Virus record (IMG/VR): IMGVR_UViG_3300021399_004731
DNA length: 64,000 bases
Origin: a virus
Lineage: Duplodnaviria > Heunggongvirae > Uroviricota > Caudoviricetes
Direction: 5' to 3' (one strand)
The notes below the pieces were generated by a model that was given only the letters and a program-made list of their open reading frames with translations, was not told the DNA's origin and did not search any database. Within the stretch, counting starts at the first letter, position 1; the number at the start of each line of letters is the position of its first letter. A program made the position numbers and the translations under genes. Positions 29,576 through 47,843 of the stretch are shown here, piece by piece.

Positions 29576-29604
29576 TCAAAAAAATATGATTAAATAATAT
29601 ATGT

Positions 29605-29906: not shown

Positions 29907-29941
29907 AATATAGAATCATTTGCATGGGGAGGACAAAAAAG

Positions 29942-30193: not shown

Positions 30194-30288
30194 GCTGAAA
30201 CAATCATCAGCTCTGGCGGTCTCTCTTTTTGTGCAAAAAAAGACTGACGACAAAATGTCATCAGTCATATAGCCAACATAATTAGAAT

Positions 30289-32691
30289 TTATTCAGTCAT
30301 GATTTTCTTGAGAATGCCTAACAGCTCTTCAGGAAGCTCATCAACGTCAGGCACGATACTATAAGCATCATAAATAAGAGGAATGTGCTCTGTATCGTCA
30401 CCGATACCTACGCCAATGGCTGAAATGTTCTTTTTTACCTTGAAGTAATTAATGAAGCCTTTCAAGTCATTCAACGCAGGCTGACCATAATAGTCATCAT
30501 CAGCAGGTGAACCGTCTGAGATGACAATCATGACAAGCTTCTCATCCTTCTTCGCATGCTTTGCTAAATCAATAGCTGCATGGAAGTAAGCAAGAGAGTC
30601 ACGGTTACCTCCGCTGGCTCTTTCCACCAGATTCAAGTTATCTCTATATTTTAAGTATCCATCGAATGGAATATATTTATAGAGATTACAATCATAATTT
30701 GGTGAATTGAAGCCATAGACAGCACATGGCACCTTGATTCTGCTACATGCCTGAGCAAGCAGCATTGAAGCTAAGGCAGCATCATACGCCTTCTGACCAT
30801 GCATTGAGCCAGACTGGTCAACAAGTACACAGATGCGGGCAGAAACTTTCTTCCCCTGTGTTACTTGTTTAAAGACACGACCATCTGTCTTCGCACGGAA
30901 GAGCTGAGGTGTGTTGATTTTACCACTCTTTTGTCCAAAGAGCTTTGTATCGTTTGCACGATACATCAACACTCTCTTTAGCTGATTAGCAAACTGTGCA
31001 GAACGGCGAGATATTTTCTGTATATCGCTATCCCTTACGCCAGCATATCTGCCGACATATTTTGCACATTCGTCAGGACTGAAAAACTGTAGTCCAACGC
31101 CATCGTGCATATGCGACAAACTGCCTGGCACTTTTGACGTGCCTTCGTAATTAGGAGAGTGTCCAGAACCATTGCTACCAAATATCTCCTTTTCAAGAGA
31201 TTTTTCAGCAGCCTTGTCTGCTTGTTTTTCAAGCGTCTTGACATCAGATTCAACAGCAGCAGCAGCTTTGATGGCTTCTGACTTGCCAATCTTCTTGACA
31301 TCTGACACGCTCTTTGAAGGCTTGCCTGCATGCTTATCTGATACAGCAGCAGTGTCACCTTCATTTCCTGCACTGTTGCCTGATTCAGACTGGCTAGCAC
31401 CATCACTACCTGATTCAGCACTGCTTGAATCAGACGCTTCATCAGCTCCAACAGAGCTTCCAGACTGACCAGCATCAGAACTGCTATCTGTGCCTTTTCC
31501 TGATTCAGACTGACTGCCGTCAGCATTATCAGAGCCATCGGCACCTGACTTGCTATCTGTACTATCCTGACTACCCTGAGCAGCTTTCTGAGCAGCTTTC
31601 TGAGCAGCTTCTTGAGCTGCTGCAGTTTCCTTCTTGGCATCATCTAATGCCTGCTGATTCTTTTCATCTAAATCGATGTTGAATTCAGAAGGTCTAGAAG
31701 CACCCTGGCCTCCAGCTTCCTTTTTATGAGAAGCTATTGACAATTCTGAAGCCATGTCATCCATCTGAGGCTGACCAGCAGTCTCAGTGTCACCAGCTTC
31801 AAGAGCCTTGATGAATCCGTTGAAAAATTCATCAGTCTTAACTGTAATTCTATCCTTAAGATATGTATTAAGAATAGCTTTTGCTGTGGCATAGACATCC
31901 CATGAATTTTCACATGAAAATCTTGCGTAATAGCAAAGCTGACGTAATTCATCAACCTTGTCATTCAGATTTTCATCTGCATCAAGATAAGGTGTCTCGA
32001 CTTCCTGGCGGTAGTCAATAACAGCAAGATGTCTGATATCTGCAATCAGACTGTGAATCCATTCTGATGAGTCATGACTCATGCTGGTGTTAGCACCTGT
32101 AACTTCCATTCTTGTGATAGAATCACGAGAGGCTACCACGCCTGCATAAGTCTGAGGCTTGTAGCTTGGACCAATGTTTTCAATCCAGGCGTCCTCAAGG
32201 GAGTTGTCAAGCTCCTTGAGGTAGTTTGCTTCTACATAATCATAGAGAGCTTTCTTTGCCTTTTCCTCTACAACTTTCTTTTCAGCTTCATTTTTACATT
32301 TTTGCCATTTCTTAGCCAGCTTTGGCATTTGTGCCTGGCCTTCAGCACCTTTCTTGCAGATTTCAACCATAGGGCCGAAATCTGTATAGAGAAGGTGAAA
32401 GGCTTCATGAGACATAACGCCTCTCAAACGAAGAATTGCGTCTTCCAATGAGACATCTTTCTTAAGGCATATTTCTTCAAGAACTGCCATGGCAACATCC
32501 ACATGGATATATTTTTCTTTATCATCCACGTGAGAATATGCTACTGGCTTATCCTCATTCACAACGTCAATTCTGACATCATGAATTTCTGGGAAAAGCA
32601 CGCCCTTCCCATATGCCGCAAATGGTCTATCCATTGTTGCTAATTTTTTTATTGCTTCATCAACAGTTATTACTTTCATTTTTTTTACCAA
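30289..32691 (-). CDS. VWA-domain protein with N-terminal HExxH region (CobT-like partner of a MoxR AAA+ ATPase)
   Basis: SHEAFH motif; Ser/Gly/Asp low-complexity linker; MIDAS DQSGS...ISDG in the C-terminal VWA domain. Confidence 0.85.
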   Translation of the reverse strand: MVKKMKVITVDEAIKKLATMDRPFAAYGKGVLFPEIHDVRIDVVNEDKPVAYSHVDDKEKYIHVDVAMAVLEEICLKKDVSLEDAILRLRGVMSHEAFHLLYTDFGPMVEICKKGAEGQAQMPKLAKKWQKCKNEAEKKVVEEKAKKALYDYVEANYLKELDNSLEDAWIENIGPSYKPQTYAGVVASRDSITRMEVTGANTSMSHDSSEWIHSLIADIRHLAVIDYRQEVETPYLDADENLNDKVDELRQLCYYARFSCENSWDVYATAKAILNTYLKDRITVKTDEFFNGFIKALEAGDTETAGQPQMDDMASELSIASHKKEAGGQGASRPSEFNIDLDEKNQQALDDAKKETAAAQEAAQKAAQKAAQGSQDSTDSKSGADGSDNADGSQSESGKGTDSSSDAGQSGSSVGADEASDSSSAESGSDGASQSESGNSAGNEGDTAAVSDKHAGKPSKSVSDVKKIGKSEAIKAAAAVESDVKTLEKQADKAAEKSLEKEIFGSNGSGHSPNYEGTSKVPGSLSHMHDGVGLQFFSPDECAKYVGRYAGVRDSDIQKISRRSAQFANQLKRVLMYRANDTKLFGQKSGKINTPQLFRAKTDGRVFKQVTQGKKVSARICVLVDQSGSMHGQKAYDAALASMLLAQACSRIKVPCAVYGFNSPNYDCNLYKYIPFDGYLKYRDNLNLVERASGGNRDSLAYFHAAIDLAKHAKKDEKLVMIVISDGSPADDDYYGQPALNDLKGFINYFKVKKNISAIGVGIGDDTEHIPLIYDAYSIVPDVDELPEELLGILKKIMTE

Positions 32692-32867
32692 TGGCGTGCC
32701 TTATGGCACACCCCTTTCTTTCTTTTTTTCTTCTTTTGTTTTTCTTTAAAAGGATTGGAGATGATGGTGTTGCCACCATCTCTACTCCACAGCAGTGTTG
32801 TTATTCGTCCTCATCGTCCAACTCATGGTGTGACATCGGCTATGCCGATGCCACAAATGAATGTGCA

Positions 32868-34589
32868 CTATCCTTCATCATCTTCCAGCTCATTGACGTA
32901 TTCAGTATCCTCAAAGATGTACTGAATATCCTGCATGATGACAGGGACAAATGCGTCCACCTGGTCAGCCATGAATGCGTCAACGGTGTATGCTGTCACT
33001 GCCCCATCGGAGCATAAATCAGGCATAATCGTTGAGCAGGCTGAACGAATGAATTCACCAGTCATGCTGGCCCTGTTCACCCATGCGATGATTCTTCTAA
33101 CTGAAGACACCTGAGACAATGGGTCACCATCAGTATTGATGTAGTGTTCAGCTTTCGCTTCCACTGACCACATCTTCTTTACGATATCGAAATTCTTGAA
33201 CCCACACTTCTCCTCAACAATGCTAGCAATTTTTTCATCGCTGAATCTTGCAAGCATCATCTTAGACTCAAGTCTATCCTTGAACGATGGGGACAACTGG
33301 TTGGTGCCAGTGTAGCCATTATTCCAGGCACAGATGAATCTGAAATTAGGATGCTGGTGGAAGACTTTATCACCAAAAGTGAAGCTTCCATTGCCGTCAA
33401 GAATGGAATTCAGCACGTTCAGCACACCTGATGAGACTGTGTTGACCTCATCAAAGAACACAAGTCCGCCCTGCTCGTAAGCCTTGAGCAAAGGACGTGC
33501 CTTGTATTCCGTGATGGAAACACCGCCATCGTTGACAAGCTCCATGGAACCTACGATGTCTGACTCAAGAAGGTTCTCTGAGCCATGCACCACGACCATA
33601 GGCAAGCCACATGCCGCCGCAATCTGCGAAGCTAGCTTAGTCTTGCCAGTCCCAGCAGGACCAACCAAGCCTAATGACTTAATCCAGCCTTTAGCCATGC
33701 CGTAAGCCGTATCCAGCTCGGCATTGTCTAATAGACCTAGAGAGCCTAGCTCAGTAGCAGCCTTCTCATATCCATCTTTAAGAGTTTCATCCCAAGATGG
33801 ATTAGGCACTTTGTTGATACGCAATTCACCAGAAATGACTTTCTCATTTCTTTTGGTTTGCTTATCATTCTTTGCCTTTTTTACGGCTAACAGATTGTCA
33901 ATAGAAGCAGCATCAAGACCTAGCTTTTTGCAAGCTTCAGTGTCTAGATTCGTCTCTGCACCGATGTAAGAATCAATAGCAGTTGCATCCTTGATGCCTG
34001 CTTTTAATTCATCTATGGTACTTTTTGTGCTGCCTTCGGCAACAACCACAGAATCGTGAGCCATCTGCTTAGCTACGCAGACTAAATTGTCTGATAGCTT
34101 TAAGAAAGGCTCTTCCTGACTCTTATCAATTTTGCCACCAGAAACCTCAATTCTATTAAAGGTTTCCTTGGCTTCAGGATTGCTCATCACTCTCATGACA
34201 AGCATAGCCAAGAAAATGTCATAGTGCTGAGCGTTGTTTGTAACAACTCCAGTCACTGTGCCACTGTCCTTATAGCTGACCACTGTATAGTTGATTTTTC
34301 CATCAACTTCATGGGCCAAAAGGATAGCTTTCTGCTCTTTATACTGGCACTTGAAAACATTCTTTGTGCCATCATAAAGCCCCTTTGCATCAGCAATAGC
34401 CTTGCCCGTCTTGTCTGACAGGTAACCAAGAATTTTTCCAGTCACAACATTCTTGAAGGTGTTGTGAGTAGAATGGATTTCTGAAGTTGTCATAGAGACA
34501 AAATCAGTTCCTGGGATGGTCAAAGACTTTAGTGTCTCGTTCACCATATTGAACGAGAAAATCTTTTCCTTAAATTTCTTTGTTGGCAT
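32868..34589 (-). CDS. MoxR/CbbQ/NorQ-type AAA+ ATPase (paralogue 1)
   Basis: Walker A GPAGTGKT, Walker B LVFFDEVN, HPNFRFICAWN, LSPSFKDR, SSVRR. Confidence 0.9.
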   Translation of the reverse strand: MPTKKFKEKIFSFNMVNETLKSLTIPGTDFVSMTTSEIHSTHNTFKNVVTGKILGYLSDKTGKAIADAKGLYDGTKNVFKCQYKEQKAILLAHEVDGKINYTVVSYKDSGTVTGVVTNNAQHYDIFLAMLVMRVMSNPEAKETFNRIEVSGGKIDKSQEEPFLKLSDNLVCVAKQMAHDSVVVAEGSTKSTIDELKAGIKDATAIDSYIGAETNLDTEACKKLGLDAASIDNLLAVKKAKNDKQTKRNEKVISGELRINKVPNPSWDETLKDGYEKAATELGSLGLLDNAELDTAYGMAKGWIKSLGLVGPAGTGKTKLASQIAAACGLPMVVVHGSENLLESDIVGSMELVNDGGVSITEYKARPLLKAYEQGGLVFFDEVNTVSSGVLNVLNSILDGNGSFTFGDKVFHQHPNFRFICAWNNGYTGTNQLSPSFKDRLESKMMLARFSDEKIASIVEEKCGFKNFDIVKKMWSVEAKAEHYINTDGDPLSQVSSVRRIIAWVNRASMTGEFIRSACSTIMPDLCSDGAVTAYTVDAFMADQVDAFVPVIMQDIQYIFEDTEYVNELEDDEG

Positions 34590-34756
34590 TTTATATATCT
34601 CCTCTCTGCTCCAGCAGCCAAAATGCTGAAGACTTTAAAATTCTTATATATTAAATCATAATAACTATCATAGAAAATTGCAACCTGAATATGATATAAT
34701 AAATACGTATCCATACGATATGCTTATTATATTGGGCAAGAAAGGAGAATGAAAGT

Positions 34757-35950
34757 ATGGCAAGATTTAATAAGGAATTCAAGGCGGCATGTAGCCTTGA
34801 AAATTATGAAAATTTCAAGAGCATAGAGAACATTAATACTTTATGTCCAGAAGGAGCAGACTGGAGATGGAGATGCTTTAAAAAGGTTCTCATTCAGGGA
34901 CAAGACAATGAAGTTCCTGGAAATGATGCCATCACTGTTGGTGAAGACATTTATGCAAAAGTGACAGGAGACTTGCTCAAGATATGGTCCCCTGAAATCA
35001 TTGAATTTGAAGATGATTCAATATGCATATTTACATACATGGAGAGGGTTGAAGAAGTTATCATGACAGACGGATTGTCATTTGAGCATGTAACAAGCTT
35101 TATGCAGACTTTTGCTGATAGCCAGAAACTATTGCATGTCAAGATGAAGGCAGACTGCAAGAATATTTATGATTTTAACAGTATGTTTTCTTGGTGCTCT
35201 AATCTTGAAAATGCAGAGCTTGATTTTTCCAATACAGGAAGTGTAAAGGAAATGAGGAAAACGTTCTTAAAATGCTATAAGCTTACAAAAATTACATGCG
35301 AAAACTGGGATGTGTCGCATGTAAAAAGCATGAAAAGCATGTTTGAGGAGTGTCAAAACTTGAAAAATATTCCTATTCAAGAATGGAACACAAGCAGTCT
35401 TGAAAATATGAGTCGTATGTTTAAATGCTGTCTGGCCTTAAAAAAGAATCCCACTGAAAAATGGGATGTATCAAAAGTCAGAGATGTTAAATATCTGTTC
35501 TCTGAATGTTGGAACTTGAAGGAAATAGACCTTTCAAGTTGGGACACATCAAGACTTGAGGACACATCCTATATGTTCTATGTTTGCAAGGAAATGAAAA
35601 AAGTCAACCTAGACAACTGGGACGGCTTTAATATCAAGAATGTCTCATCTATGTTTAAAGAATGCAAAAGCCTTGAAGATGTCTCAATGAAATGGAAAAG
35701 AGAGGCATTTATCGAAAACGCAGAATATGCTTTTTCAGGATGCACAAGCCTGAAAATAATTGATATCAGTTCTTTTGATTTCTCCAGATGTAGAAATACA
35801 GTGAGAATGTTTGAAGAATGTGAAGAATTGTTCTGGGTGGAAAATGCATGGAATCTCAATCCATCGCTTTGGAACACAAAAGGCATGTTTATGATGTGCT
35901 CAAGCCTCATGTTTCCTGATATTTCAGCATGGAAGCAAAAGGACCTTTGA
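34757..35950 (+). CDS. DUF285/BspA-type LRR protein 1 (no export signal)
   Basis: 25-26-aa WDVSxVxxMxxMFxxCxxL repeats; starts MARF; no hydrophobic signal or anchor. Confidence 0.9.
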   Translation: MARFNKEFKAACSLENYENFKSIENINTLCPEGADWRWRCFKKVLIQGQDNEVPGNDAITVGEDIYAKVTGDLLKIWSPEIIEFEDDSICIFTYMERVEEVIMTDGLSFEHVTSFMQTFADSQKLLHVKMKADCKNIYDFNSMFSWCSNLENAELDFSNTGSVKEMRKTFLKCYKLTKITCENWDVSHVKSMKSMFEECQNLKNIPIQEWNTSSLENMSRMFKCCLALKKNPTEKWDVSKVRDVKYLFSECWNLKEIDLSSWDTSRLEDTSYMFYVCKEMKKVNLDNWDGFNIKNVSSMFKECKSLEDVSMKWKREAFIENAEYAFSGCTSLKIIDISSFDFSRCRNTVRMFEECEELFWVENAWNLNPSLWNTKGMFMMCSSLMFPDISAWKQKDL

Positions 35951-36106
35951 TTTCTAGTGATGATTTTATTGCAATGTTTCTTATCTTGCTGGGAGGCACC
36001 TATTAAGGTGTCTTTCTTTTTGCTTATTTTTGTCGTAGAAGATATTATGATAAAATATAAATGCCATATAGTAGTCCTGATGAGGACAGAAAGGAGAATA
36101 TTATAT

Positions 36107-37330
36107 ATGAGCAAAATAGTAAAGTTTAATGATTTCTTTAAAAGGAATTTTTGTCTTGATGATTATTCATCAGTCAAGAACATAGAACTGATAAGCCCGT
36201 TCTTTCCAAAAGGCATAAGAGGAAAAAATTCCTTCAAGAAAATCATCATTGCAGGATGTGATAATGACGTTGCTGATGATAAGTCAATTATTGTTGGCGA
36301 AGACATCTACGCCAGCATCAGAAAAGGCAACTTGAAAATCTGGTCTCCGTATCAGATTGAATTTGATGATGAAACAATAGGAATGTTTTATCAGATGATG
36401 AGGATTAAAGAGGTCATTATGAATGATGCTATTGTCTTCAATTTGACCAGCTTCGTGGATACGTTTGCAAACAGCAAGAGACTGAAATATGTAGAAATGC
36501 ATGCTGACTGCACGAAAGCGAACAGCTTTCAGAGAATGTTCTTTAATGACAACGCCCTGGAAAATGTTATACTTGATTTCAAGAATACGGGGAATGTCAG
36601 AGATATGTCTCTCATGTTCAAGGGATGCATCAGCCTAAAGCATATCGGTGACATAGAGACATGGGATGCATCTCATGTTACAAAAACTGATGAGATGTTC
36701 AATGAATGTACCAGCCTGAAAAGCATTCCAATACAAGACTGGAAAACCAGCAGTTTAAGGAGCATGAGGTATATGTTTTCATCCTGCTACAGACTTGAAG
36801 AGAATCCAACAGAAAAATGGGATACTTCAAGCCTCGTGGATGCATCAGGGGTATTTGAACTATGCACCAGTCTGACATCAATCAACCTGTCTGGCTGGAA
36901 CACAGAAAGACTTGAGACAGCTGCTGACATGTTTGATAGCTGCAGTTTTCTCAGATATGTCAATTTAGACAACTGGGACGGTTTTAACATCATAAACATG
37001 GATTTCATGTTTAGACATTGCACTCAGCTTGAAGATGTCTCAATGAAGAATTGGCAAAATAAAGCCAGCGTTGAGAGGGCTGAAGGAGCATTCATGTCAT
37101 GTGAAAACCTTACGGTGCTTGACTTATCTAATGTCAGCTTAGAAAAATGCAAAAATATGGCAAATATGTTCACATACTGCAAAAATCTTTTGTGGATTGA
37201 AAACGAGTGGAACATTTATCCAGGTATTGAGCTTTCAGTAAGCATGTTTTATGATTGTGTCAGTCTGGTATTGCCTGATACATCTTCCTGGCCTTGTCAT
37301 AACATGTTCGATGCTAGCTTTTATATTTGA
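36107..37330 (+). CDS. DUF285/BspA-type LRR protein 2
   Basis: True start at 36107 (MSKIVKF, GAAAGGAG RBS); closest to member 1. Confidence 0.9.
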   Translation: MSKIVKFNDFFKRNFCLDDYSSVKNIELISPFFPKGIRGKNSFKKIIIAGCDNDVADDKSIIVGEDIYASIRKGNLKIWSPYQIEFDDETIGMFYQMMRIKEVIMNDAIVFNLTSFVDTFANSKRLKYVEMHADCTKANSFQRMFFNDNALENVILDFKNTGNVRDMSLMFKGCISLKHIGDIETWDASHVTKTDEMFNECTSLKSIPIQDWKTSSLRSMRYMFSSCYRLEENPTEKWDTSSLVDASGVFELCTSLTSINLSGWNTERLETAADMFDSCSFLRYVNLDNWDGFNIINMDFMFRHCTQLEDVSMKNWQNKASVERAEGAFMSCENLTVLDLSNVSLEKCKNMANMFTYCKNLLWIENEWNIYPGIELSVSMFYDCVSLVLPDTSSWPCHNMFDASFYI

Positions 37331-37337
37331 CAGCTGT

Positions 37338-37370
37338 AAAGCCCCCCTACTTTAGTTGTATGGAGTTCAA
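37338..37370 (+). mobile_element. Solo IS200/IS605 right-end remnant
   Basis: AAAGCCCCCCTACTTTAGTTGTATGGAGTTCAA aligns with the tnpB element right end AGAATCCCACGACTTTAGTCGTGTGGAGTGTCAA. Confidence 0.55.
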
Positions 37371-37488
37371 TGAGTCACCAGTTTTGGTGTCTCATTTTTT
37401 GTTTATAAACCACTAATATGATAAAATATAAATGCTATATGAATAAGGTCTATAGATAAATATCTACAGACACAGAAAGGAGAATATT

Positions 37489-38406
37489 ATGAAAATAGCA
37501 AGATTTAGTAAATCATTAGGCGACATGCTCAAAACATATCACATGTTATCTAATCCAGGAGACATGTATAGGAAAGCTGAAAATGACTTACTGGAAGCAT
37601 TTGTCCCAAAAAAAGAATGGGGACTTTCATGTACCTACATCAGCATTTATTGCATGATGCCCTTTGTCCAGCCAGATGATGCAAAGACGACAGTCAGGAT
37701 GGATGATGGTAAATACCCTATCTACGCTATAGTCAGAAGCGGCGGATTGGAAGTTGTGGCTGAGGCAGACTATATCGAATGGACGGACACATTACAATCC
37801 ATTCGTATGCTTTCATATTCAACAGGCATCAAGACAATGGAAATAGATGACATTGATTTTAGCAAATGCACTAGCTTTTCATACATGTTTGCTCATAATC
37901 GGGATGTTGAGGAAATTCATTTCCATAACATTAAAGGCATGGAAAATGTAAGAAATACATATTCTATGTTTTCGTGCTGCTGCAAGCTTGCATCACTCAA
38001 TATGAGCTGTTTTCAAGGCTTGCATCCAGAATATGCAGAAAGCATGTTTAGTGCCTGCTATAGTCTCAAGAGAATTGATGACATATTCCAGGTTGATGCT
38101 AAATGCTATAACACGAGTGCAATGTTCAGGGACTGCCTTAGTCTTGAAGAGCTTGACCTGAATGGCTGGAATGTTTCAGGCGTTTCAAGCATGGCATTGA
38201 TGTTCTATTCATGCAATAGCCTGAAAGCACTTGATGTCCATCAGTTTGACCCAAGTCATTGTAAGGATATGAGACTCATGTTCGCACACTGTAGCAGCCT
38301 GATGATACTTGATACATCGGGATGGAAGATTAGCAAAGAATGCAATACTGAAGACATAATAGAGGAATGCGAAAGCTTGGTATTTGTTGATGAAATACTG
38401 CAATAG
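37489..38406 (+). CDS. DUF285/BspA-type LRR protein 3 (short, fewer repeats)
   Basis: MKIARF start; CMMPFVQPDDAKTTVR shared with member 7; 305 aa. Confidence 0.9.
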   Translation: MKIARFSKSLGDMLKTYHMLSNPGDMYRKAENDLLEAFVPKKEWGLSCTYISIYCMMPFVQPDDAKTTVRMDDGKYPIYAIVRSGGLEVVAEADYIEWTDTLQSIRMLSYSTGIKTMEIDDIDFSKCTSFSYMFAHNRDVEEIHFHNIKGMENVRNTYSMFSCCCKLASLNMSCFQGLHPEYAESMFSACYSLKRIDDIFQVDAKCYNTSAMFRDCLSLEELDLNGWNVSGVSSMALMFYSCNSLKALDVHQFDPSHCKDMRLMFAHCSSLMILDTSGWKISKECNTEDIIEECESLVFVDEILQ

Positions 38407-38420
38407 AAAGAGAGGATAAT

Positions 38421-39716
38421 ATGAAAGTAGCAAAATTTTGTAACGATTTAGGAAAAATCTTAGACAAAAAGGAGACAGAAATGCACTGGAAGCCAAATGA
38501 CGGCTTTAGGATAAGAAACCGTCTTTTGCCAGCCTTTCTGCCAGCAGAGAGAATACCTGACATCAAGACAATCAATGTTAGATGCATATCCGATTATACG
38601 CCTGACAGCAAGGCAGTACGTCTTGATAATGGTTATCTGCCTATCTATGTTGAGATAACAGATGATACAGTCAGCATCATCAGTACTGCCGACTACATAG
38701 AATGGTGCGAAGAGGCAGGAAATTTCTTTTATAGGCTGGAACATGTTGAGCATATCAGCATGCATGACATAGACTTTAAAGATGCCCAGAAAGTCAATTC
38801 TCTTTTCAACAGCGACAAGTCATTAAAGGATGTAGATTTCAAGAATCTTATCAACACTGAAGACATCTACAGCATGACCTACATGTTTGCTGGGTGCCAG
38901 AGTATTGAAGAAATCGATATGTCTGCATTCAAGTCAGAGTGGCAGCATGTTGCGAGGGCCTTTATTGGATGCCTTTCATTGAAGACTGTCAAGGGCATGC
39001 ATATCACTCATGCATGTTTCAGCCTGTCTGCAATGTTCAGAAATTGCGAATCATTGCAAGAAATTGAAGGCATTTCCAATTGGGATGTTTCCCATGTAAG
39101 GGAAATGAACAATATGTTCACCTATTGCAAAGGTCTTAAGGCTCTTGACCTGTCTGGATGGAACACAGAAAGACTCGAAGAAGTGATAAAGATGTTTTAC
39201 GAGTGCTTTGACTTAAAGGAAGTCAAAGGCATCAAAGACTGGAATGTCAGCAGCCTTAAGTTTACAGGAGGCATGTTTGGACAATGTGTTTCGCTCGAAG
39301 CTATAGACTTGAGCGGCTGGAACACCAAGTCACTTAAGAAGACAGACAGCATGTTTTACGGATGCGAACAAGTCAAATCCATTAATTTGAATGGATGGAA
39401 AACATCAAGAGTCACATCAATGTCTTGCATGTTTGAAAACTGCAAGTCTATGGAGGAAATTGACATCAGCACATTCAGTACGGGAGCTGTATCAGACATG
39501 AGTAGCATGTTCAAAGGCTGTGAATCACTAAAGGCATTAGACCTGTCAAGATTCAAGCTCAAGAAATGCATGTACATAAATGAAATGTTTGCTGGCTGTC
39601 GAAGCCTCAATATTCTTGACCTGACAGGATGGGAACTGGACAGATGCTGTCAAAAGGGCTACGTTCTTAACAACTGTGACAGTCTTGTATTCGTTGATAT
39701 ATCCGTCTTTCATTAA
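38421..39716 (+). CDS. DUF285/BspA-type LRR protein 4
   Basis: MKVAKF start, LPIYV..ADYIEW N-domain, LRR repeats, C-terminal cap. Confidence 0.9.
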   Translation: MKVAKFCNDLGKILDKKETEMHWKPNDGFRIRNRLLPAFLPAERIPDIKTINVRCISDYTPDSKAVRLDNGYLPIYVEITDDTVSIISTADYIEWCEEAGNFFYRLEHVEHISMHDIDFKDAQKVNSLFNSDKSLKDVDFKNLINTEDIYSMTYMFAGCQSIEEIDMSAFKSEWQHVARAFIGCLSLKTVKGMHITHACFSLSAMFRNCESLQEIEGISNWDVSHVREMNNMFTYCKGLKALDLSGWNTERLEEVIKMFYECFDLKEVKGIKDWNVSSLKFTGGMFGQCVSLEAIDLSGWNTKSLKKTDSMFYGCEQVKSINLNGWKTSRVTSMSCMFENCKSMEEIDISTFSTGAVSDMSSMFKGCESLKALDLSRFKLKKCMYINEMFAGCRSLNILDLTGWELDRCCQKGYVLNNCDSLVFVDISVFH

Positions 39717-39783
39717 TAATATTTCTTATCTTGCTGATAAAGACACCTATTTAGGTGCCTTTATTTTTGCCTTATAAGCATAT

Positions 39784-39946
39784 TATGATAAAATATATAT
39801 GCTATTTAGGATGCAAAAACCTTATCAGCTTGAATCTTTCTGGATGGAAACTTAGTCCTGATACGGACGCTTATCAATGTCTCGATGGATGCGAGAATCT
39901 CGTGTTCGTGGACATGAGCGTTTTTGATGGATTGATGAGACTGTGA
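39784..39946 (+). pseudogene. Deleted LRR gene relic: promoter joined directly to the last ~46 codons
   Basis: Promoter motif 39784-39797, then LGCKNLISLNLSGWKLSPDTDAYQCLDGCENLVFVDMSVFDGLMRL*, which closely matches the C-terminus and terminator of member 8. Confidence 0.8.
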
Positions 39947-40072
39947 GATATTGCTATTGAATGGATGGGCATTTTGTCCGTCCTCTTTTTTTATTTTTTG
40001 CATACATCCCTAATATGATAAAATATATATGCTATATTTATGTCCCATTGAGGACGGAGAGGAGAATAAAAT

Positions 40073-41611
40073 ATGAAAATAGCAAAATTTAACAAAGATA
40101 TCTTAGACATAATGAATGAAAAAAGCAGAAAAAATTCTGGGGAGTCTCTTAAAAGATTCAATAACGGCCTCATCCAGGCATTTGCAAGTGAAGATGATGC
40201 CAAGACGATTGAAATCAAATGTCAGGCGCCTGCCGACATTCCAGATGATGCGGAGACATTAAGGATAGATGACTATGCATCATATCCTATCTATGTCATC
40301 GCAACAAAGGAAAAAGTTTCAGTAGTAGCTGAAGCTGACAAGATAGAATGGAGGGATGACCTCAGCCAGTTACACCTTCTGGACAGAGCACGAAAAGTAA
40401 AACACATCATAGTGCATGATGTGGATTTCAGCAAGTGTAAAAGCCTGTCCGAAATCTTTTACTCCGATAGGGGTGTAATTGATTTTGATTTTCAAAATCT
40501 GTCAGGCTTTGAAAACGTGGAAGAGGCAGAAAGCATGTTTTCAATGTGCGAGAATATAAGAACAATAGACATGGCAGAATTCAGAGGGATGTTGCCAAAA
40601 TGCACAACCAACATGTTTAGCTGTTGCTGCTATCTTACAGAAATCAAAAATATCTTGCAGATAAGTAGCAATTGCGTGGAAACAGGAGGAATGTTTTCAC
40701 ATTGCTACAAAATAAGGACACTGGACCTGAATGATTGGGACATGTCCAATGTCAGATGCATGAATGGCATGTTCGAGCAATGCAATAATCTAAAGGAATT
40801 ACACATTGAAGACTGGAACACAAAAAATATGGTGGACGCTTCCTACATGTTCTCTCAATGTGGCATTGAAAAAATGCCTGTTGAAAGATGGGATGTTTCT
40901 AATCTTTTGAATGCCAAAGCTATGTTCTGCTATTGTGATAACATGATTTCGCTGGATTTGTCTCAGTGGAACACAGAAAACTTACAATATACTGATAGTA
41001 TGTTCGGTGGATGTGAAAATCTTGAACATGTGAATCTCAAGAACTGGAAGACATCAAAGGTCTTGAACGTGTCGGGCATGTTCGAGAGGTGCAAGAATCT
41101 AAAGGAATTGCACATTGAAGGCTGGGATGTTTCTAGTCTTAGGGATGCCAGATACATGTTCTGCAATTGCAAGAGCATGGGTTCACTGGATTTGTTTCAG
41201 TGGAATACCAAGGAATTGCGATACACCGACAATATGTTCAGTGGATGTGAAAACCTTGAATATCTGAGTCTTCTTGGCTGGAGAACGTCAAAGACCTTGA
41301 GCATGTTTGGCATGTTCAGAAGCTGTAAGAAACTGAAGGAATTAGATTTGTCATCTTTCAGAACATCAGCTGTGTCTAACATGGGCTACATGTTTAGTGA
41401 TTGCTGTGAGCTTAAAACACTGGACTTGCATCAGTTTGCTCTAGGCAAATGTATAAACATGGGGAGCATGTTTGAGGATTGCAACAGTCTCATGGTGCTG
41501 GATACATCAGGCTGGAAGATTCGTAACGATTGTCATACACGCGACATGCTTTTCGGATGCACGAGTCTTGTATATATTGATGAAAATGTATACAAAGCAC
41601 ATTCCATTTAA
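40073..41611 (+). CDS. DUF285/BspA-type LRR protein 5 (longest; internal 78-aa duplication)
   Basis: MKIAKF start; duplicated three-repeat block starting at 40889 and 41123. Confidence 0.9.
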   Translation: MKIAKFNKDILDIMNEKSRKNSGESLKRFNNGLIQAFASEDDAKTIEIKCQAPADIPDDAETLRIDDYASYPIYVIATKEKVSVVAEADKIEWRDDLSQLHLLDRARKVKHIIVHDVDFSKCKSLSEIFYSDRGVIDFDFQNLSGFENVEEAESMFSMCENIRTIDMAEFRGMLPKCTTNMFSCCCYLTEIKNILQISSNCVETGGMFSHCYKIRTLDLNDWDMSNVRCMNGMFEQCNNLKELHIEDWNTKNMVDASYMFSQCGIEKMPVERWDVSNLLNAKAMFCYCDNMISLDLSQWNTENLQYTDSMFGGCENLEHVNLKNWKTSKVLNVSGMFERCKNLKELHIEGWDVSSLRDARYMFCNCKSMGSLDLFQWNTKELRYTDNMFSGCENLEYLSLLGWRTSKTLSMFGMFRSCKKLKELDLSSFRTSAVSNMGYMFSDCCELKTLDLHQFALGKCINMGSMFEDCNSLMVLDTSGWKIRNDCHTRDMLFGCTSLVYIDENVYKAHSI

Positions 41612-41666
41612 TAGAAAAAAGAAAAGAAATGGGGCGTGCCACAAGGCACGCCATTGGTAAAGAAAA

Positions 41667-42959
41667 ATGAAAATAGCAAGATTTGCAGAAAATCAAAACG
41701 ACATTCTTCGGAAAAATCAGAAAAGTGTCAATATCCTTTTGGATTATGACAATGAAAATCCGTTGATGTCGGCTTTTGTTGAGGATAGAAAATGGTATCT
41801 GATAAAGCGCATTCATGTAAGATGCCAGAAAGGCTATATTCCATCCCCAGAAAGCATCAGAATGGATGATGGTAAATATCCTATCTATGTTGAGACTACA
41901 AAGGATAGCCTCAACATTATAGGAGACGCTGACTATATCGAATGGTCTGGAAAGCAGAATCTGTTTTTCCAGAATATCAAAAAAGGTGTGGAAGACATCA
42001 TTTTTGAGGACGTTTCTCTTTCTGGAGGGTTAATTGAATGTATGTTCTATAGAGACGAGTTTATAAAAAGCGTCAAAATGAAAAATATCATCAATCTAGA
42101 TGCAATAAATAGCACAAGAATGATGTTCTTTTGCTGCTACTCGTTAGAACATATCGAAATGCCAGATTTCAAAGATATGCCTAATCTACAAAACGTGGGA
42201 TACATGTTTGAGAATTGCGAAAATTTGAAAGAAATTGATGGCCTCCCTGTCATCACAAGCCAATGCTTAAACATGAAGAATATGTTTTATAAGTGTCAGG
42301 CAATAACGAGTCTTGATTTGTCAGACTGGGATGTCTCTAATGTCAAATTCATGCAAAACATGTTTAGAGAATGCACTCATCTTGAATCCATCAAGACAGG
42401 AGACTGGCACTGTGAACATGTCCTTGACATGACTTCTATGTTTGAAAACTGTGAAAAACTGAAAGACATCGATGATGTCGGAAAATGGCATGTAAGGGAC
42501 ATTAGAAATACGACAGAAATGCTAGCAGGCTGCCGAAGTCTGAAACATATTGATTTGTCTGGATGGTCTACAAAAGGCCTGAAAACAACAGAGTCCATGT
42601 TTTACGACTGCATCAGCATAGAGAGCATTAACCTGCATAGCTGGATAACAACCAGCGTCAATAATATGCAACTCATGTTCGCTAGGTGTCGCATGCTGAA
42701 GGAGCTTGACATCAGCACATTCAGAACATCAGCTGTTTCTAATATGGCTCACATGTTCAAGGACTGTGAATCCATCCAGTCATTGGATGTATCCAATTTC
42801 TCAGTAGGCAAAGTCAGATATATGTATGGCATGTTTAAAGGCTGTCAAAGTCTTATCTGGCTGAATATATCAGATTGGAAAATCCGAAACGACTGTAACA
42901 CGAATGGCATGTTTGAGAGGTGCGTGCATCTGGCATATCTTGATGGAGATATCTTTTAA
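41667..42959 (+). CDS. DUF285/BspA-type LRR protein 6
   Basis: MKIARF start; hairpin leader at 41633-41652; closest to member 8. Confidence 0.9.
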   Translation: MKIARFAENQNDILRKNQKSVNILLDYDNENPLMSAFVEDRKWYLIKRIHVRCQKGYIPSPESIRMDDGKYPIYVETTKDSLNIIGDADYIEWSGKQNLFFQNIKKGVEDIIFEDVSLSGGLIECMFYRDEFIKSVKMKNIINLDAINSTRMMFFCCYSLEHIEMPDFKDMPNLQNVGYMFENCENLKEIDGLPVITSQCLNMKNMFYKCQAITSLDLSDWDVSNVKFMQNMFRECTHLESIKTGDWHCEHVLDMTSMFENCEKLKDIDDVGKWHVRDIRNTTEMLAGCRSLKHIDLSGWSTKGLKTTESMFYDCISIESINLHSWITTSVNNMQLMFARCRMLKELDISTFRTSAVSNMAHMFKDCESIQSLDVSNFSVGKVRYMYGMFKGCQSLIWLNISDWKIRNDCNTNGMFERCVHLAYLDGDIF

Positions 42960-43084
42960 ATGAAATATTTGCTTGCTTATGGAGGATGATTTCCATCCTC
43001 TTTTTCTTTGTCTAAGACTTAATATGATAAAATATACATGCCATATAAATAGTGCTGCTTAGCACGGAGAGGAGAATGATATAT

Positions 43085-44407
43085 ATGAGCAAAATAGCAA
43101 AATTCAATGAAAGCCTTGGAGAAATGCTGAGGGTATATTGTGCGGCGTTGAATCCATATGAAGTGAATAGAAGTGTAAATGGACTGCTGAAAGCATTTAT
43201 CCAAAAAAAAGAATGGGCTTCATACACCTACATAAACGTAAGATGCATGATGCCTTTTGTCCAGCCTGATGATGCCAAGACGACAGTCAGACTAGATGAC
43301 GGGAAGTCATACCCTATCTATGCTGTTGTCAGAAGCGACGGCATAGAAATCATAGGCGAAGCTGACTATATTGAATGGACGGACGAATTACTATCCATTC
43401 ATATGCTGTCAGAAGCAACTTACGTGAAGTTAATGGAAATATCAGACATTGATTTTAGTCAATGCACTTATTTGTCAAACATGTTTTGTCAAGACGGAAA
43501 GGTAGAAAGGATAACGTTTAAAAACCTTATAGGGTTGGAAAGCAATATAAGATGGACAGCATCTATGTTTAGTGGATGCGCCAATCTGATAGAGCTTGAC
43601 ATGGAATGCTTTAGGAACCTGCGTCCTTTCATAACGATGGGCATGTTCTATGGGTGCAAGAATATGAGAACTATTGAAAATATGTTTTCAATAGATGAAA
43701 GATGCATAGACACTTCCAGCATGTTTTGTAACTGTTACAGACTTGAGCAGCTCGACCTGAACAGCTGGGACGTGTCGCATGTAAGCGAAATGGACAACAT
43801 GTTCCTTAAGTGCAAAGGACTGAAGACCTTGCATATTAGCAAGTGGAATACTGTAGGTTTGGAAACTACTCAATACATGTTTAGAGAATGTCGGAGTCTG
43901 AGAAAGGCAGAAGTTGCAGATTGGGACGTTTCTAATCTTGAGGATACCTATGGGATGTTTTCACTTTGTGAAAACCTCACATCTCTTGACCTTTCAAAGT
44001 GGGATACAAGAAAAGTCGGAACGATGGGTTACATGTTTTACCAGTGCAAAAACCTGGCGTGTCTTAATCTGCATGGATGGAGAACCGCCAATGTGGACAA
44101 CATGGAATGCATGTTCAAGGGATGTGCTAGTCTAAATGAACTAGACCTATCAACATTCAGAACATCGTCTGTCATTACTATGAAAGAGATGTTCTATGGA
44201 TGCAGAAGCCTGAAGGCACTCGATGTCCATCAGTTTGCCTTTGGTCATTGCAGGGATATGAGATGTATGTTCGAGTACTGCAGAGACCTGATGGTACTGG
44301 ATACATCAGGATGGAAGCTCAGCAAGGAGTGCAAAGCTAATAAAGCCAACATCATAGCGGGCTGCCAAAGCCTTGTGCTTGCTGATATTGCTTTGTTGAA
44401 ATCATAA
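43085..44407 (+). CDS. DUF285/BspA-type LRR protein 7
   Basis: True start at 43085 (MSKIAKF, GGAGAGGAG RBS); promoter motif 43023-43036. Confidence 0.9.
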   Translation: MSKIAKFNESLGEMLRVYCAALNPYEVNRSVNGLLKAFIQKKEWASYTYINVRCMMPFVQPDDAKTTVRLDDGKSYPIYAVVRSDGIEIIGEADYIEWTDELLSIHMLSEATYVKLMEISDIDFSQCTYLSNMFCQDGKVERITFKNLIGLESNIRWTASMFSGCANLIELDMECFRNLRPFITMGMFYGCKNMRTIENMFSIDERCIDTSSMFCNCYRLEQLDLNSWDVSHVSEMDNMFLKCKGLKTLHISKWNTVGLETTQYMFRECRSLRKAEVADWDVSNLEDTYGMFSLCENLTSLDLSKWDTRKVGTMGYMFYQCKNLACLNLHGWRTANVDNMECMFKGCASLNELDLSTFRTSSVITMKEMFYGCRSLKALDVHQFAFGHCRDMRCMFEYCRDLMVLDTSGWKLSKECKANKANIIAGCQSLVLADIALLKS

Positions 44408-44448
44408 AGAAACAAAAAAAGAAAGGAAGTGTGCCCTATGGCACGCCA

Positions 44449-45768
44449 TTGGTAAAGAAAATGAGAATAGCAAAATTTTCTGAAGAATTAATAAATATCA
44501 TGGAAGATTCTCAAAAGAAGCTAAACGGCGGATATGGTTTCTATAATGAAAATCTTCTTCTAAGTTCGTTTGTAGAAGTCGGGAAATGGGGTGATATCAA
44601 ATCCATTAGAATATTTTGTGAAGATGGCTTTGAACCATCTGGAAGATGGATGAGGGTGGATGATGGTGCATCATATCCCATCTATGTTGATGTGTTAAGT
44701 GACAGAATTCAGATAGTCGCTGATGCTGACTATATTGAATGGTCTGACAAATGCTATTTCTTAAGTTCTCTAAAGATGAGTGTGTATCATATATCCATAA
44801 AAAATGTATCGTTTAAGAATATCAGCAATCTCAATTGCATGTTCTATGATGATAAAGCTGTTGAGAATATTGAATTCCTTGACATCATTCATCTTGATAA
44901 CATCAAAGAATGCAGGCAGATGTTTCTGGCCTGTCATGGACTTAAGACAATCAGCATGCCTGATTTTAGGAATCTGCCATCTCTGGATGATGCCAGTGCA
45001 ATGTTTCGTGAATGCCAAAATCTTAAGAGCATTGATGGCCTGCCAGTCATTACAGACAGATGCACAATGCTGGAGTGCATGTTCGATGACTGTGAGAGTC
45101 TGACAAATCTTGACCTGTCAGGCTGGGACGTATCCAGTGTCAAGAGCATGGCCTTTATGTTCTGCGACTGCGGTAAGCTTTCATCACTGAACCTATCAGG
45201 ATGGAATACGAGCAGTATGGAATCAGCTGATTCCGTGTTCAGAGATTGTGTAGAATTAAACACAATTGATGTTGAAGGCTGGAATACAGCATGCCTGAAA
45301 AATGCAAGCCATATGTTTATGGGATGCTCAAAACTGGAACGGCTTGACCTCTCAAGGTGGAACACAAGGTCATTAAAAAGTGCAAAAGATATGTTTGCAC
45401 TCTGTATGAATATGCAGGAAATTAACCTGCATGGATGGATGACATCAAATATCAATAACATGGGATACATGTTTTTTGGTTGCGAGAACTTAAAAACGCT
45501 TGATATCAGTACCTTCAGAACATCAGCTGTATCAAATATGAACAGCATGTTCATGAACTGCGAGTCTCTAAAAAGCGTTGATGTGTCGCACTTTTCTATG
45601 GGCAAGTGCAGATATATAAGCAGCATGTTTGAACGATGCAAAAGCCTGACATTTATTGATGTATCTGGATGGAAGCTTCGCCGTGACATTGACGCTTATC
45701 GATGCCTCAACGGATGTGAGAATCTCGTGTTCGTGGACATGAGTGTCTTTAATGGATTGAGAATGTGA
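44449..45768 (+). CDS. DUF285/BspA-type LRR protein 8
   Basis: Start is TTG 44449 or ATG 44461 (MRIAKF); GAAAGG + hairpin leader at 44421-44446. Confidence 0.9.
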   Translation: MVKKMRIAKFSEELINIMEDSQKKLNGGYGFYNENLLLSSFVEVGKWGDIKSIRIFCEDGFEPSGRWMRVDDGASYPIYVDVLSDRIQIVADADYIEWSDKCYFLSSLKMSVYHISIKNVSFKNISNLNCMFYDDKAVENIEFLDIIHLDNIKECRQMFLACHGLKTISMPDFRNLPSLDDASAMFRECQNLKSIDGLPVITDRCTMLECMFDDCESLTNLDLSGWDVSSVKSMAFMFCDCGKLSSLNLSGWNTSSMESADSVFRDCVELNTIDVEGWNTACLKNASHMFMGCSKLERLDLSRWNTRSLKSAKDMFALCMNMQEINLHGWMTSNINNMGYMFFGCENLKTLDISTFRTSAVSNMNSMFMNCESLKSVDVSHFSMGKCRYISSMFERCKSLTFIDVSGWKLRRDIDAYRCLNGCENLVFVDMSVFNGLRM

Positions 45769-45887
45769 GAAATTGCTATTTTAATGCTAGAAATGGGATG
45801 GACATTTTATCCATCCTCTTTTTTTGCGCAAAAAAAAGGACAGGTGAAATACATCACCTGTTCTTTTCTGCCAATTTTTTCTCTCCT

Positions 45888-47642
45888 TTAGTCATCCTCC
45901 TCTTCTTCAAACTCTGCATCATCAAAATTATCGATGATGTCCTGCATGATGATAGGAACAAATTCATCAACACTATCAGCTAAAAAAGCATCAGTAGTGT
46001 AAGATGTTACTGCCCCATCAGAGCATAAGTCAGGCATGATTGTCGAACAAGCGGAACGTACAAATTCGCCTGTAATACGTGCACGCTTAACCCATGCAAT
46101 GACACGTCTTACAGAAGAAAGCTGTTCACTTCCATCTCCAACATCATTGATGAAGGCTTCGGCTTTCGCCTCGATAGCCCACATCTTCTTGATGATATCA
46201 AGATTCTTGAATCCACATTCCTTTTCAATGATTGCAGCCACCTTTTCATCGCTGAAACGGCTGATAATCATCTTTTCAGGAAGTCTGTCTTTGAATTCTG
46301 GAGACAACTGGTTAGTACCAGTGTACCCATCATTCCATGCACAGATAAATCTGAAATTTGGATGCTGATGGAATACTTTGTCACCAAAAGTGAAGCTTCC
46401 ATTGCCATCCAGAATTGAATTGAGGATTTTAAGAACCCCAGTTGAGACTGTGTTTACTTCATCGAAGAAACACAATCCACCTTGCTCATAGGCCTTGACG
46501 AGAGGACGTTCCTTGTATCCTGTTACGGATACACCATCCTGGTTCATCAATTCCATTGAGCCAACAATGTCAGATTCCAATAGATTCTCTGAGCCATGTA
46601 CCACAACCATTGGAAGACCGATGCAGCCCGAAATAGTTTCTGCAAACTTCGTCTTACCAGTACCTGCTGGTCCATGCAATCCTAATGATGTCGTCAGTCC
46701 CTTAGACATCATGGCAATGACTTCAGCCTCATCCTGAGTCAGATGGCTGAGGTCAGAAGAGTCAAAGTTCTTCTGAGCTTTCTTATAGCCATCCTGGAGT
46801 GTTTCATCCCAGGATGTGTCAATGGCATCATTCAGCTTGAACTTACCATCACCGATGGCTTTTACAAGGGCCTTGCCAGTAACTTTCTTGCTGGCTTTCT
46901 TTTTTGGAAGTGGCATTTCCTCAATGTTGTCATCGATGCCTAATAATGCAGCACCAACAGAAGCTTCAACACCTTCATCAGGAGTCGTGTTGTCAAGATA
47001 TTTATGAATTCCTCTTACAGAATCCATATTTATCTTATCTTGCAACTCCTTGACGACCAGCTTGGTGTCACCAGCAGTGAAGGTTACACCATCCATCTGC
47101 TTTGTAAGCTGATGAATGTTATCAACAGTAATAAAGAATTCCTTCTTCACGTTGCTGTCAACAACCCCTTCACATTCATGGATAGTGCTCCAGCACTTAG
47201 TAGCCTCCTTGTCCTTAGTTACTAGTCTGAAACCAAGCAATGCCTTGTATAATGTATGGCTATACAAGTTGTTGGTGATGCCACCAACAATTTTCTTGTC
47301 CTTGTCATACTCAACCAAGGCGTAGGTTGAGCCAACAGATGTGCCGTCAGCTACGACCAATACAGCCTCATTTCCATCCTGCATCAGGCAATGATAGAAA
47401 TTTTGTCTGTCGTCATAGACGCAAGATTCAACGACTGCCTGACCAATCTTGTATGGAATGACAGCCAAGACCTTCTTGACTACAGGATTCTTTTCTGAGT
47501 TCAATTTTGAATGGAACTCAGTGGATGTCTCATTCCCAGAAAATGCAGAATGCGAAATCTGGGCATTCGCATTTGTCTTAGGGAATACCATATCTGCAGC
47601 AAATTTTACAGATTCTAAAGATTTAATTTTCAACTTTGGCAT
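45888..47642 (-). CDS. MoxR/CbbQ/NorQ-type AAA+ ATPase (paralogue 2)
   Basis: True start at 47642 (MPKLK, AGGAGA RBS). GPAGTGKT, FFDEVN and HPNFRFICAWN; the core is nearly identical to paralogue 1. Confidence 0.9.
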   Translation of the reverse strand: MPKLKIKSLESVKFAADMVFPKTNANAQISHSAFSGNETSTEFHSKLNSEKNPVVKKVLAVIPYKIGQAVVESCVYDDRQNFYHCLMQDGNEAVLVVADGTSVGSTYALVEYDKDKKIVGGITNNLYSHTLYKALLGFRLVTKDKEATKCWSTIHECEGVVDSNVKKEFFITVDNIHQLTKQMDGVTFTAGDTKLVVKELQDKINMDSVRGIHKYLDNTTPDEGVEASVGAALLGIDDNIEEMPLPKKKASKKVTGKALVKAIGDGKFKLNDAIDTSWDETLQDGYKKAQKNFDSSDLSHLTQDEAEVIAMMSKGLTTSLGLHGPAGTGKTKFAETISGCIGLPMVVVHGSENLLESDIVGSMELMNQDGVSVTGYKERPLVKAYEQGGLCFFDEVNTVSTGVLKILNSILDGNGSFTFGDKVFHQHPNFRFICAWNDGYTGTNQLSPEFKDRLPEKMIISRFSDEKVAAIIEKECGFKNLDIIKKMWAIEAKAEAFINDVGDGSEQLSSVRRVIAWVKRARITGEFVRSACSTIMPDLCSDGAVTSYTTDAFLADSVDEFVPIIMQDIIDNFDDAEFEEEEDD

Positions 47643-47843
47643 AACAATTATTTCTCCTCTCTGCTCCAGCGTGCCAAAAATGCTGAAGACTTTAAAAATA
47701 CACAAATATATAATCATATTAACGAGCAAATGAGACACGAATGCAGAAAATTGAAATTGACTGTACAATAATTTGATTTCATGTCATTAATATACTATAA
47801 TAAATACGTAAGCAAAAAGCAAAGAAAAACAACAGGAGGGACT

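Follow-up and report, generated by a model that had tools for sequence, protein, structure and literature searches.

The Aureococcus anophagefferens virus (Kratosvirus quantuckense) encodes 38 DUF285 proteins, a family of leucine-rich repeat (LRR) proteins (PMC10720644), and jumbo-phage records show DUF285 matches at multiple places per record. In group 2.2 jumbo phages, a pair made of a MoxR AAA+ ATPase and a metallopeptidase-vWA protein was described and proposed to have a role in virion assembly (Iyer et al., 2021; PMC7824862). MoxR-vWA pairs with a third, diversifying component constitute ternary conflict systems (Kaur et al., 2020; PMC7159879). Finally, CobS/CobT-like pairs are common on plasmids and SSU5-like phage-plasmids. 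The present study deals with a locus where an LRR family and an ATPase-VWA pair occur together, in a 64,000-nucleotide stretch of DNA (IMG/VR record IMGVR_UViG_3300021399_004731, hereafter the window) that belongs to a plasmid-like element. As stated in the initial annotation of this DNA, eight intact tandem DUF285/BspA-type LRR genes and one relic are bracketed by two AAA paralogues and an HExxH-VWA gene. We hold it to be rather probable that the array encodes a set of cytoplasmic proteins, specific to this lineage, that bind proteins of the host or of competitors, and that it became inserted in a core ATPase module that is duplicated.

The locus lies in a sharp-edged hypervariable island (29575-47768 of the window). 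The stretch is present in animal-gut and rumen runs of ten studies, and its relatives comprise the identical contig L024, L005, and L001 plus L022, which belong to one contig. The gene order VWA-AAA1, LRR array, AAA2, DnaE is kept in the relatives. Nucleotide identity to L001/L022 amounts to 96.1% up to position 29573 and to 95.6% from 47767 onward, whereas inside the island it is 67-77% or no match is found. Both edges are abrupt, since identity to L001 drops from 96.1% to 74% at 29573/29575 and identity to L022 climbs from 71% to 95.6% at 47767/47768. Synonymous divergence (dS) is saturated inside the island (1.7 for the VWA gene, 1.9 for AAA2) and equals 0.18 in the genes for DnaE, the ABC ATPase and Erf. 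Because of this difference, the island is best viewed as a set of ancient alleles exchanged by recombination, and not merely as a fast-evolving region.

The content of the array also varies. The window has eight LRR genes and L001/L022 have at least ten. In run X3, which represents a strain 95-99% similar to the window, 2.56 kb are added at the relic site (39808/39809) and 234 nt, corresponding to three repeats, are missing from the fifth LRR gene, the deletion spanning 40880-41115. Arrays are nevertheless retained in all three deep relatives. In L005, the orthologue of the eighth gene (11882-13200) is split into open reading frames (ORFs) of 173 and 270 aa and is probably a frameshifted pseudogene.

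In the window, the eight LRR genes, called here L1 to L8, are arranged in six transcription units of their own, on the strand opposite to that of the AAA and VWA genes. L1 (34757..35950, +; 397 aa) and L2 (36107..37330, +; 407 aa) have each their own promoter, at 36046 for L2, and their own terminator, and both encode a variant N-domain. L3 (37489-38406, +; 305 aa) and L4 (38421-39716, +; 431 aa) are separated by a 14-nt gap and form a bicistronic unit with a promoter at 37417 and a terminator behind L4. Two further bicistronic units are made of L5 (40073-41611, +; 512 aa) and L6 (41667-42959, +; 430 aa), with a promoter at 40014, and of L7 (43085-44407, +; 440 aa) and L8 (44461-45768, +; 435 aa), with a promoter at 43023; a hairpin leader stands in front of L6 and L8, and a terminator behind each of them. 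Between L4 and L5, a gap of 356 nt contains a promoter motif at 39784 and, directly behind it, the relic (~39810-39946, +), which corresponds to the 3'-terminal 45 codons of a gene resembling L8 (E 9e-13). This 3' end is 77% identical in nucleotides to that of L8 and still has a stop codon and a terminator. A family search found no other member elsewhere in the window. The promoter motif, TATGATWWAWTATA, is element-wide and is found in front of L2, L3, the relic, L5 and L7; L1 has a variant form of it, and AAA1 is preceded by one on the other strand. Terminator-like hairpins are located behind L1, L2, L4, the relic, L6 and L8. As judged from these signals, the order of the units is L1 / L2 / L3-L4 / relic / L5-L6 / L7-L8.

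All eight LRR proteins match PF03382 (DUF285) in Pfam, with E-values of 2e-18 to 2e-79 and scores of 66.7-263.8 bits for a gathering cut-off of 25, and most also match LRR_5. Their alignment agrees with the architecture put forward in the initial annotation: an N-domain of about 105 aa is common to all, the middle part varies in repeat number and the C-terminal cap is conserved. The basic MKIAKF start attributed to the whole family holds as M[KR][IV]A[KR]F in L3-L8 (in L7 after an extra Ser), L1 (MARFNKEF) and L2 (MSKIVKF) being variants. Across 22 family members, 217 repeats were counted in a strict 26-residue register, where positions M1, F2, C5 and L8 are nearly or fully invariant. The Cys richness pointed out earlier is real (3.4-5.2%). 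It is, however, a family trait and no oddity: one invariant Cys is present per 26-residue repeat, and the Cys content can therefore be regarded as structural.

An AlphaFold2 model of L7, calculated with a 24-sequence family alignment (pLDDT 93, pTM 0.90), shows a small alpha/beta N-domain with three helices and five strands, followed by a solenoid of 26-residue LRRs, to which each repeat contributes one short strand. Using this model, Foldseek retrieved LRR structures, the best superpositions being with the BspA-like proteins of gut bacteria 4fs7, 4h09 and 4gt6. The N-domain folded alone reaches a pLDDT of 91. A fold search of this domain against the PDB gave no convincing relative (best Z 3.1) and no match to known anchors; in AFDB, it shows a weak likeness to the pre-LRR parts of other BspA-family proteins. 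By sequence search, it was found only in this lineage, and ESM Atlas feature searches returned nothing usable. PADLOC gave no match for either the LRR or the VWA proteins.

Hydropathy analysis found no hydrophobic N-terminus or transmembrane segment in any of the eight proteins (maximal KD19 ≤1.42), in keeping with the earlier statement that signal peptide, lipobox, transmembrane segment and sorting motif are all absent. Export signals upstream of the called starts were also looked for and none was found, as the in-frame extensions cross terminators and promoters and offer no usable upstream start. By comparison, two other proteins of the element, of 3083 aa and 1252 aa, have classic Sec signal peptides and a Cys content of 0-0.2%. 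The 3083-aa protein (8993-18244, -) carries ten Listeria-Bacteroides repeats and a ricin lectin domain, and the 1252-aa protein (22996-26754, -) has weak SMC/LmuB-like coiled-coil matches; both are probably displayed or secreted by the host of the element. Because the LRR proteins lack export signals and are Cys-rich, in contrast to these Sec-dependent, Cys-poor proteins, they are very probably cytoplasmic. The intracellular location put forward in the initial annotation is thus supported.

Selection was studied by comparing the window with L005. The LRR orthologues, 87-94% identical in amino acids, have a dS of 0.16-0.29 and a ratio of nonsynonymous to synonymous divergence (omega) of 0.13-0.40, versus 0.03-0.09 for backbone genes. 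Amino acid changes cluster at repeat positions 25, 26, 3, 4, 6 and 7, that is, in the stretch around MFxxC that leads into the beta-strand. At these positions omega is 0.53 (bootstrap 0.35-0.84), compared with 0.13-0.24 in all other classes; this value is a description and no test, the positions being chosen from the same data. The dN/dS of the concave LRR face was also checked, and the changes are not located there: omega is 0.18 at the beta-strand x positions, and hypervariability of the concave face was consequently rejected. On these codon comparisons, purifying selection acts on the LRR genes, apart from one stripe that is relaxed or diversifying. Altogether, gene and repeat numbers that vary between strains, the hypervariability of the island and an omega above that of the backbone speak for the diversifying repertoire proposed at the outset.

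On this basis, the following scenario can be proposed. An old two-gene machine, made of an AAA_5 ATPase with a variable head and of a zinc-peptidase-like/VWA partner, would exist in many related big elements, usually beside DnaE. In the present lineage, the ATPase gene would have been duplicated, and a cytoplasmic DUF285 LRR family would have become established between the resulting genes, in the opposite orientation. The family would then have grown by tandem duplication, genes and 26-residue repeats being gained and lost by recombination. Each protein consists of the small alpha/beta N-domain, a solenoid of 6-14 repeats and the conserved cap, and the panel would bind variable host, phage or rival-element proteins, serving host adaptation, counter-defence or exclusion. 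The anatomy of the locus, the LRR fold, the absence of export signals, the limits of the island, the variation in copy number and purifying selection with a variable stripe are established here, and the binder function and the role in conflict are what we infer for the LRR proteins. Several points weigh against this reading. The variable stripe was defined from the very data it describes, as said above, and an omega >1 was not found in any class of repeat positions. Just two deep island alleles have been seen, and a single recombination event could explain the island. The cysteine ladder also occurs in exported LRR proteins such as internalin J, so that Cys alone is no proof of a cytoplasmic location. 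Moreover, the placement of the array exactly between the duplicated ATPase genes may be no accident.

This last point raises the question of the ATPase-VWA machine. AAA1 (32868..34589, -; 573 aa), the first gene of an AAA1-VWA operon, and its paralogue AAA2 (45888..47642, -; 584 aa), which is divergent from the DnaE gene and has no VWA gene of its own behind it, encode ATPases of the AAA_5 type (MoxR/CobS/NorQ/midasin-type). They match PF07728 AAA_5 with E-values of 1.5e-20 and 1.3e-19, respectively, and PF07726 AAA_3, the MoxR family proper, is absent among the matches at E <=0.01. Walker A (GPAGTGKT) and Walker B (FFDEVN) are invariant in the ATPase alignment. The nearest solved structures in the PDB are midasin (9e-37) and CobS (2e-13), with NorQ and CbbQ also retrieved. 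With PADLOC, only short matches of the Walker A region to IetA/RtcR models were observed, and no defence system. The two ATPases had been presented as paralogues with a near-identical core. They are indeed paralogues, although their cores are only 71% identical and their 270-aa N-domains, for which Pfam matched no family, 29%.

Between AAA1 orthologues, the N-domain is 44% identical, versus 81% for the core. When AAA2 is compared with its L005 counterpart (L005:10001-11755), dS is saturated in the 270 codons of the N-domain and is 0.29, as in the backbone, in the core. A recombination breakpoint is thus located inside the AAA2 gene. The N-terminal head therefore circulates as deeply divergent alleles, and the N-domain can be described, from these alignments, as a swapped, deeply allelic specificity module.

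The VWA protein (30289..32679, -; 796 aa from the ATG) comprises an N-terminal HExxH zincin-like, or metallopeptidase-like, domain, an acidic low-complexity linker and a C-terminal, CobT-like vWA domain with a MIDAS motif. It matches PF11775 CobT_C (8e-12) and, weakly, VWA in Pfam, solved CobT in the PDB (1e-7) and phrog_1576 (1.2e-24); nothing was found by Pfam in its N-terminal third. It was aligned with six distant homologues (26-31% identity), which places the low-complexity linker between conserved motifs. GxxxHExxHxxxxD, NSxEDxxxE and the MIDAS motif DxSGS (DQSGS here) are invariant across the seven homologues, the invariant residues being H91, E92, H95, D100, N159, S160, E162, D163, E167, D621, S623, G624 and S625. 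In PHROG, the names attached to the ATPase/VWA pair are 'porphyrin biosynthesis' and CobT.

In two runs of the source sample, contigs from RNA libraries cover VWA, AAA1 and AAA2, and span the AAA1/VWA junction, while LRR genes are represented by small pieces only (e.g., 39056-39341); these contigs permit no ranking of expression, and missing cover is no finding.

In the initial annotation, the LRR proteins were considered as possible sensors or substrate adaptors of the MoxR-VWA machine. Accordingly, an alternative explanation is that they form a third component, whether sensors, substrate receptors or clients, of an AAA-VWA-peptidase machine, to which they would deliver captured proteins for ATP-driven remodelling or cleavage. 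This may look attractive, since all the parts lie within a single island with sharp limits, the whole of which diverges together, ATPase duplication and LRR array occur together in this lineage, and MoxR-vWA pairs with a third diversifying component offer a precedent (PMC7159879). However, the machine has a variable head of its own and therefore has no need for LRRs as adaptors. Between the window and L005, it is the N-domain that was swapped, and no such change affects the LRRs. The six LRR units are read from the opposite strand, and each has a promoter and a terminator to itself.

Distant relatives of the ATPases allow this alternative to be weighed further. A HMMER search with the ATPase alignment gave about 30 distant full-length homologues, N-domain included, and the contexts of six of them were read. 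A CobT_C/VWA protein of about 790-910 aa is encoded downstream in 6/6 cases, either directly or three small genes away. No LRR gene is found within 10 kb at any of the six loci. Five were searched in six frames with a hidden Markov model of the window LRRs, the positive control giving seven matches, and the sixth (P0010) was judged from its gene table, where no DUF285 is listed; Pfam showed no other LRR type among the neighbours. DnaE adjoins the ATPase in two of the six loci, one of which has an AAA2/DnaE-like divergent arrangement beside ParA/ParB. At other loci, SecA, a prepilin peptidase or giant proteins with Listeria-Bacteroides repeats are encoded nearby. An LRR array beside the pair was thus seen only in this one rumen lineage, and the synteny of MoxR, VWA and DUF285 genes that had been proposed as a check is largely lacking at homologous loci. 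Since the pair is kept at distant loci that lack LRR genes, it is an ancient core module, shared by a wide range of large elements of Bacillota, whereas the LRR array together with the ATPase duplication is, judging from the gene contexts, a single lineage-specific event. A distant version of the pair, with three small genes in between, is very common in gut metagenomes, where it is listed in 346 blocks; examples are L030 and L031, whose contigs measure 147 and 53 kb. Its cluster, that of P0019, appears by name in assemblies of Faecalibacillus intestinalis and Coprobacillus, where it stands beside a giant Flg_new protein with a Gp10_C domain.

A further argument for a tie between the two gene sets was the leader hairpin common to the VWA gene, L6 and L8. 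The observation itself stands: the leader GGCACGCCATTGGTAAAGAAAATG has exactly three matches in 64 kb, against 0 expected. In front of VWA (32677..32712, -), the 8-bp GC hairpin is followed by CCATTGGTAAAGAAAATG, as in L6 and L8. The intercistronic module consists of an SD-like (Shine-Dalgarno-like) GAAAGG or GGGG, the hairpin and then CCATTGGTAAAGAAA-ATG, and occupies 32677-32712 (-), 41633-41668 (+) and 44425-44463 (+). Its stem is kept despite a C-to-T change, which turns a G-C into a G-U pair. VWA, L6 and L8 are each the second gene of a two-gene unit. As a functional VWA-LRR tie, the shared leader was rejected, as it marks the second cistron of three bicistronic units. The module could possibly be a translational-coupling device, or a device that moves the SD nearer to the start codon.

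A complex prediction with the AAA1 N-domain, the VWA domain and the LRR N-domain scored 0.00, which is evidence neither way. Taken together, the 0/6 loci with LRR genes, the constant presence of the VWA partner and the fact that co-occurrence amounts to a single evolutionary event do not support LRRs as sensors or adaptors of the machine, and we regard the coupled arrangement as unlikely. Some coupling is possible given that all parts share one sharply bounded island, a point that comes down to one evolutionary event. In its most developed form, this reading would unite the two swappable-head ATPases, the peptidase-VWA protein and the LRR repertoire in a single cytoplasmic system for recognition and proteolysis, in which LRRs capture variable host, phage or rival-plasmid proteins for an ATP-driven peptidase, and frequency-dependent selection would maintain the whole cassette in the form of ancient alleles; this complete scheme seems a little less likely still.

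It may also be asked whether the LRR proteins are displayed, by non-classical export or on a particle or pilus, their N-domain serving for docking or export and the LRR part acting as an adhesin or receptor-binding head. DUF285 is typical of surface proteins and phage fibre heads, the PHROG matches of the LRR proteins fall in profiles of 1700-1850 positions built on long phage proteins, and genes for a T2SSE ATPase and a prepilin peptidase are present on the element. Moreover, phages with multiple receptor-binding proteins combine a conserved N-module with a variable head. Yet the LRR proteins lack signal peptide, lipobox, transmembrane segment and sorting motif, while the exported proteins of the same element have Sec signals and almost no Cys; their N-domain resembles no known anchor, the array stands among replication genes and about 85 kb of sequence showed no structural gene of a phage. 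Display is therefore quite improbable. Equally improbable is that the array is passenger DNA, a recombination-prone repeat family without selected function placed by the accident of one insertion: the relic, the variable gene number, the gene split in L005 and the confinement of family and N-domain to this lineage would fit, but 8/9 copies are intact, orthologue omega is 0.13-0.40, promoters, ribosome-binding sites and terminators are kept, and arrays persist in all three deep relatives.

The island region comprises 13 features, including VWA and AAA1 on the (-) strand, the eight LRR genes on the (+) strand, the relic and AAA2 on the (-) strand. At its left edge (29575..30288, -), a 135-aa ORF with no family assigned (29861-30268) has no Pfam, PHROG or PADLOC match. 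At its right edge (47643..47768), between AAA2 and DnaE, a 1.9-kb insertion is present at 47767/47768 in L022, L023 and X3; it carries a 504-aa gene with a weak OrfB_IS605 match (L022:8208-9722). The DnaE-type polymerase gene (47781-51362) is divergently transcribed relative to AAA2.

The contig that carries the island measures at least 155 kb. The element encodes DnaE, SSB, Erf, an ABC ATPase, an ArfA-like peptide, an IS605-type transposase and giant signal-bearing repeat proteins, and the T2SSE ATPase and prepilin peptidase genes lie just outside the window. Three ORFs of at least 1000 aa are present in the window, encoding the Flg_new/ricin protein, an AAA_15-like protein and DnaE. Over about 85 kb, no structural hallmark of a phage was encountered. 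The identity of DnaE to all proteins of PLSDB and INPHARED is low, at about 31-35%, and protein searches of these databases gave only CobT/NorD-like and DnaE matches (<=35%); a DNA search of INPHARED gave no relatives. The search for relatives in IMG/VR returned one unrelated high-GC CobS-like phage, and GTDB genomes only generic AAA_5 proteins of Actinomycetota. From its gene content, the element looks plasmid-like and self-replicating, of rumen and gut Bacillota. Two other genes deserve mention. A 52-aa ORF of L001 (L001:16024-16182) matches ArfA (PF03889) in Pfam and is the orthologue of window ~29032-29216, beside the island, which backs a separate early note of an ArfA-like ribosome-rescue peptide. 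An IS200/IS605-type TnpB-like transposase gene (20667-21803, -; phrog_506, E 2e-97) is located in a stretch whose GC content is raised (0.51).

The most useful new facts are where exactly the island begins and ends, how deeply allelic it is, and that the ATPases have a modular N-terminal head. Such a sharply bounded, deeply allelic island shows where these elements face the strongest diversifying pressure. If the LRR proteins are intracellular binders, they constitute a collection of protein-recognition modules that evolves naturally on a mobile element of bacteria, and extend the pattern of giant viruses and jumbo phages to plasmid-like rumen elements. The ATPase/peptidase-VWA pair is a widespread mobile-element module labelled 'porphyrin biosynthesis', and the variable, exchangeable head that it has here points to a specificity-bearing machine rather than to a metabolic enzyme. 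If all the parts were one recognition-and-proteolysis system, it would represent a bacterial equivalent of F-box/LRR proteins and similar families of substrate receptors, and a hand-over from LRR to machine, once demonstrated, would define a new kind of conflict system.

How, then, does the locus compare with the known systems? CobS/CobT, NorQ/NorD and CbbQ/CbbO are the best matches among solved structures for the ATPase and VWA proteins. Identity is, however, low and limited to the AAA core and the VWA domain, CobT and NorD have no HExxH domain, and neither CobN, nor a client enzyme, nor a cobalamin gene was seen in the window. The jumbo-phage pair has the same architecture, with an AAA ATPase gene followed by that of a vWA protein having an N-terminal HExxH domain, on large mobile genomes (PMC7824862). 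This likeness is one of architecture, and the present ATPase differs in being duplicated and in its 270-aa variable N-domain. The context is also that of replication (DnaE, and ParAB in a relative) instead of virion genes, so that a role in virion assembly is not obviously applicable here.

With the ternary conflict systems, the locus shares a MoxR-vWA pair beside fast-diversifying components, the presence of a peptidase domain and a location that is both mobile and variable, although LRR arrays are not among the partners described (PMC7159879). VMAP, iSTAND, FtsH and beta-propeller third components gave no Pfam or PADLOC match in the island, VMAP models being maybe outside these libraries. 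The LRR proteins have the same repeat family and fold as the BspA-type surface proteins 4fs7, 4h09 and 4gt6, but those are exported, whereas the proteins of the array carry no export or anchor signal. Finally, the DUF285 families of the Aureococcus virus and of jumbo phages are the nearest precedents for the array and resemble it in consisting of many tandem, signal-less paralogues, in a repetitive and variable region of a large mobile genome, with duplication dynamics (PMC10720644). The present carrier is a plasmid-like bacterial element and not a known virus, its LRR family has a 105-aa N-domain of its own, and its array is set inside a duplicated AAA/VWA-peptidase module, within a sharply bounded allelic island.

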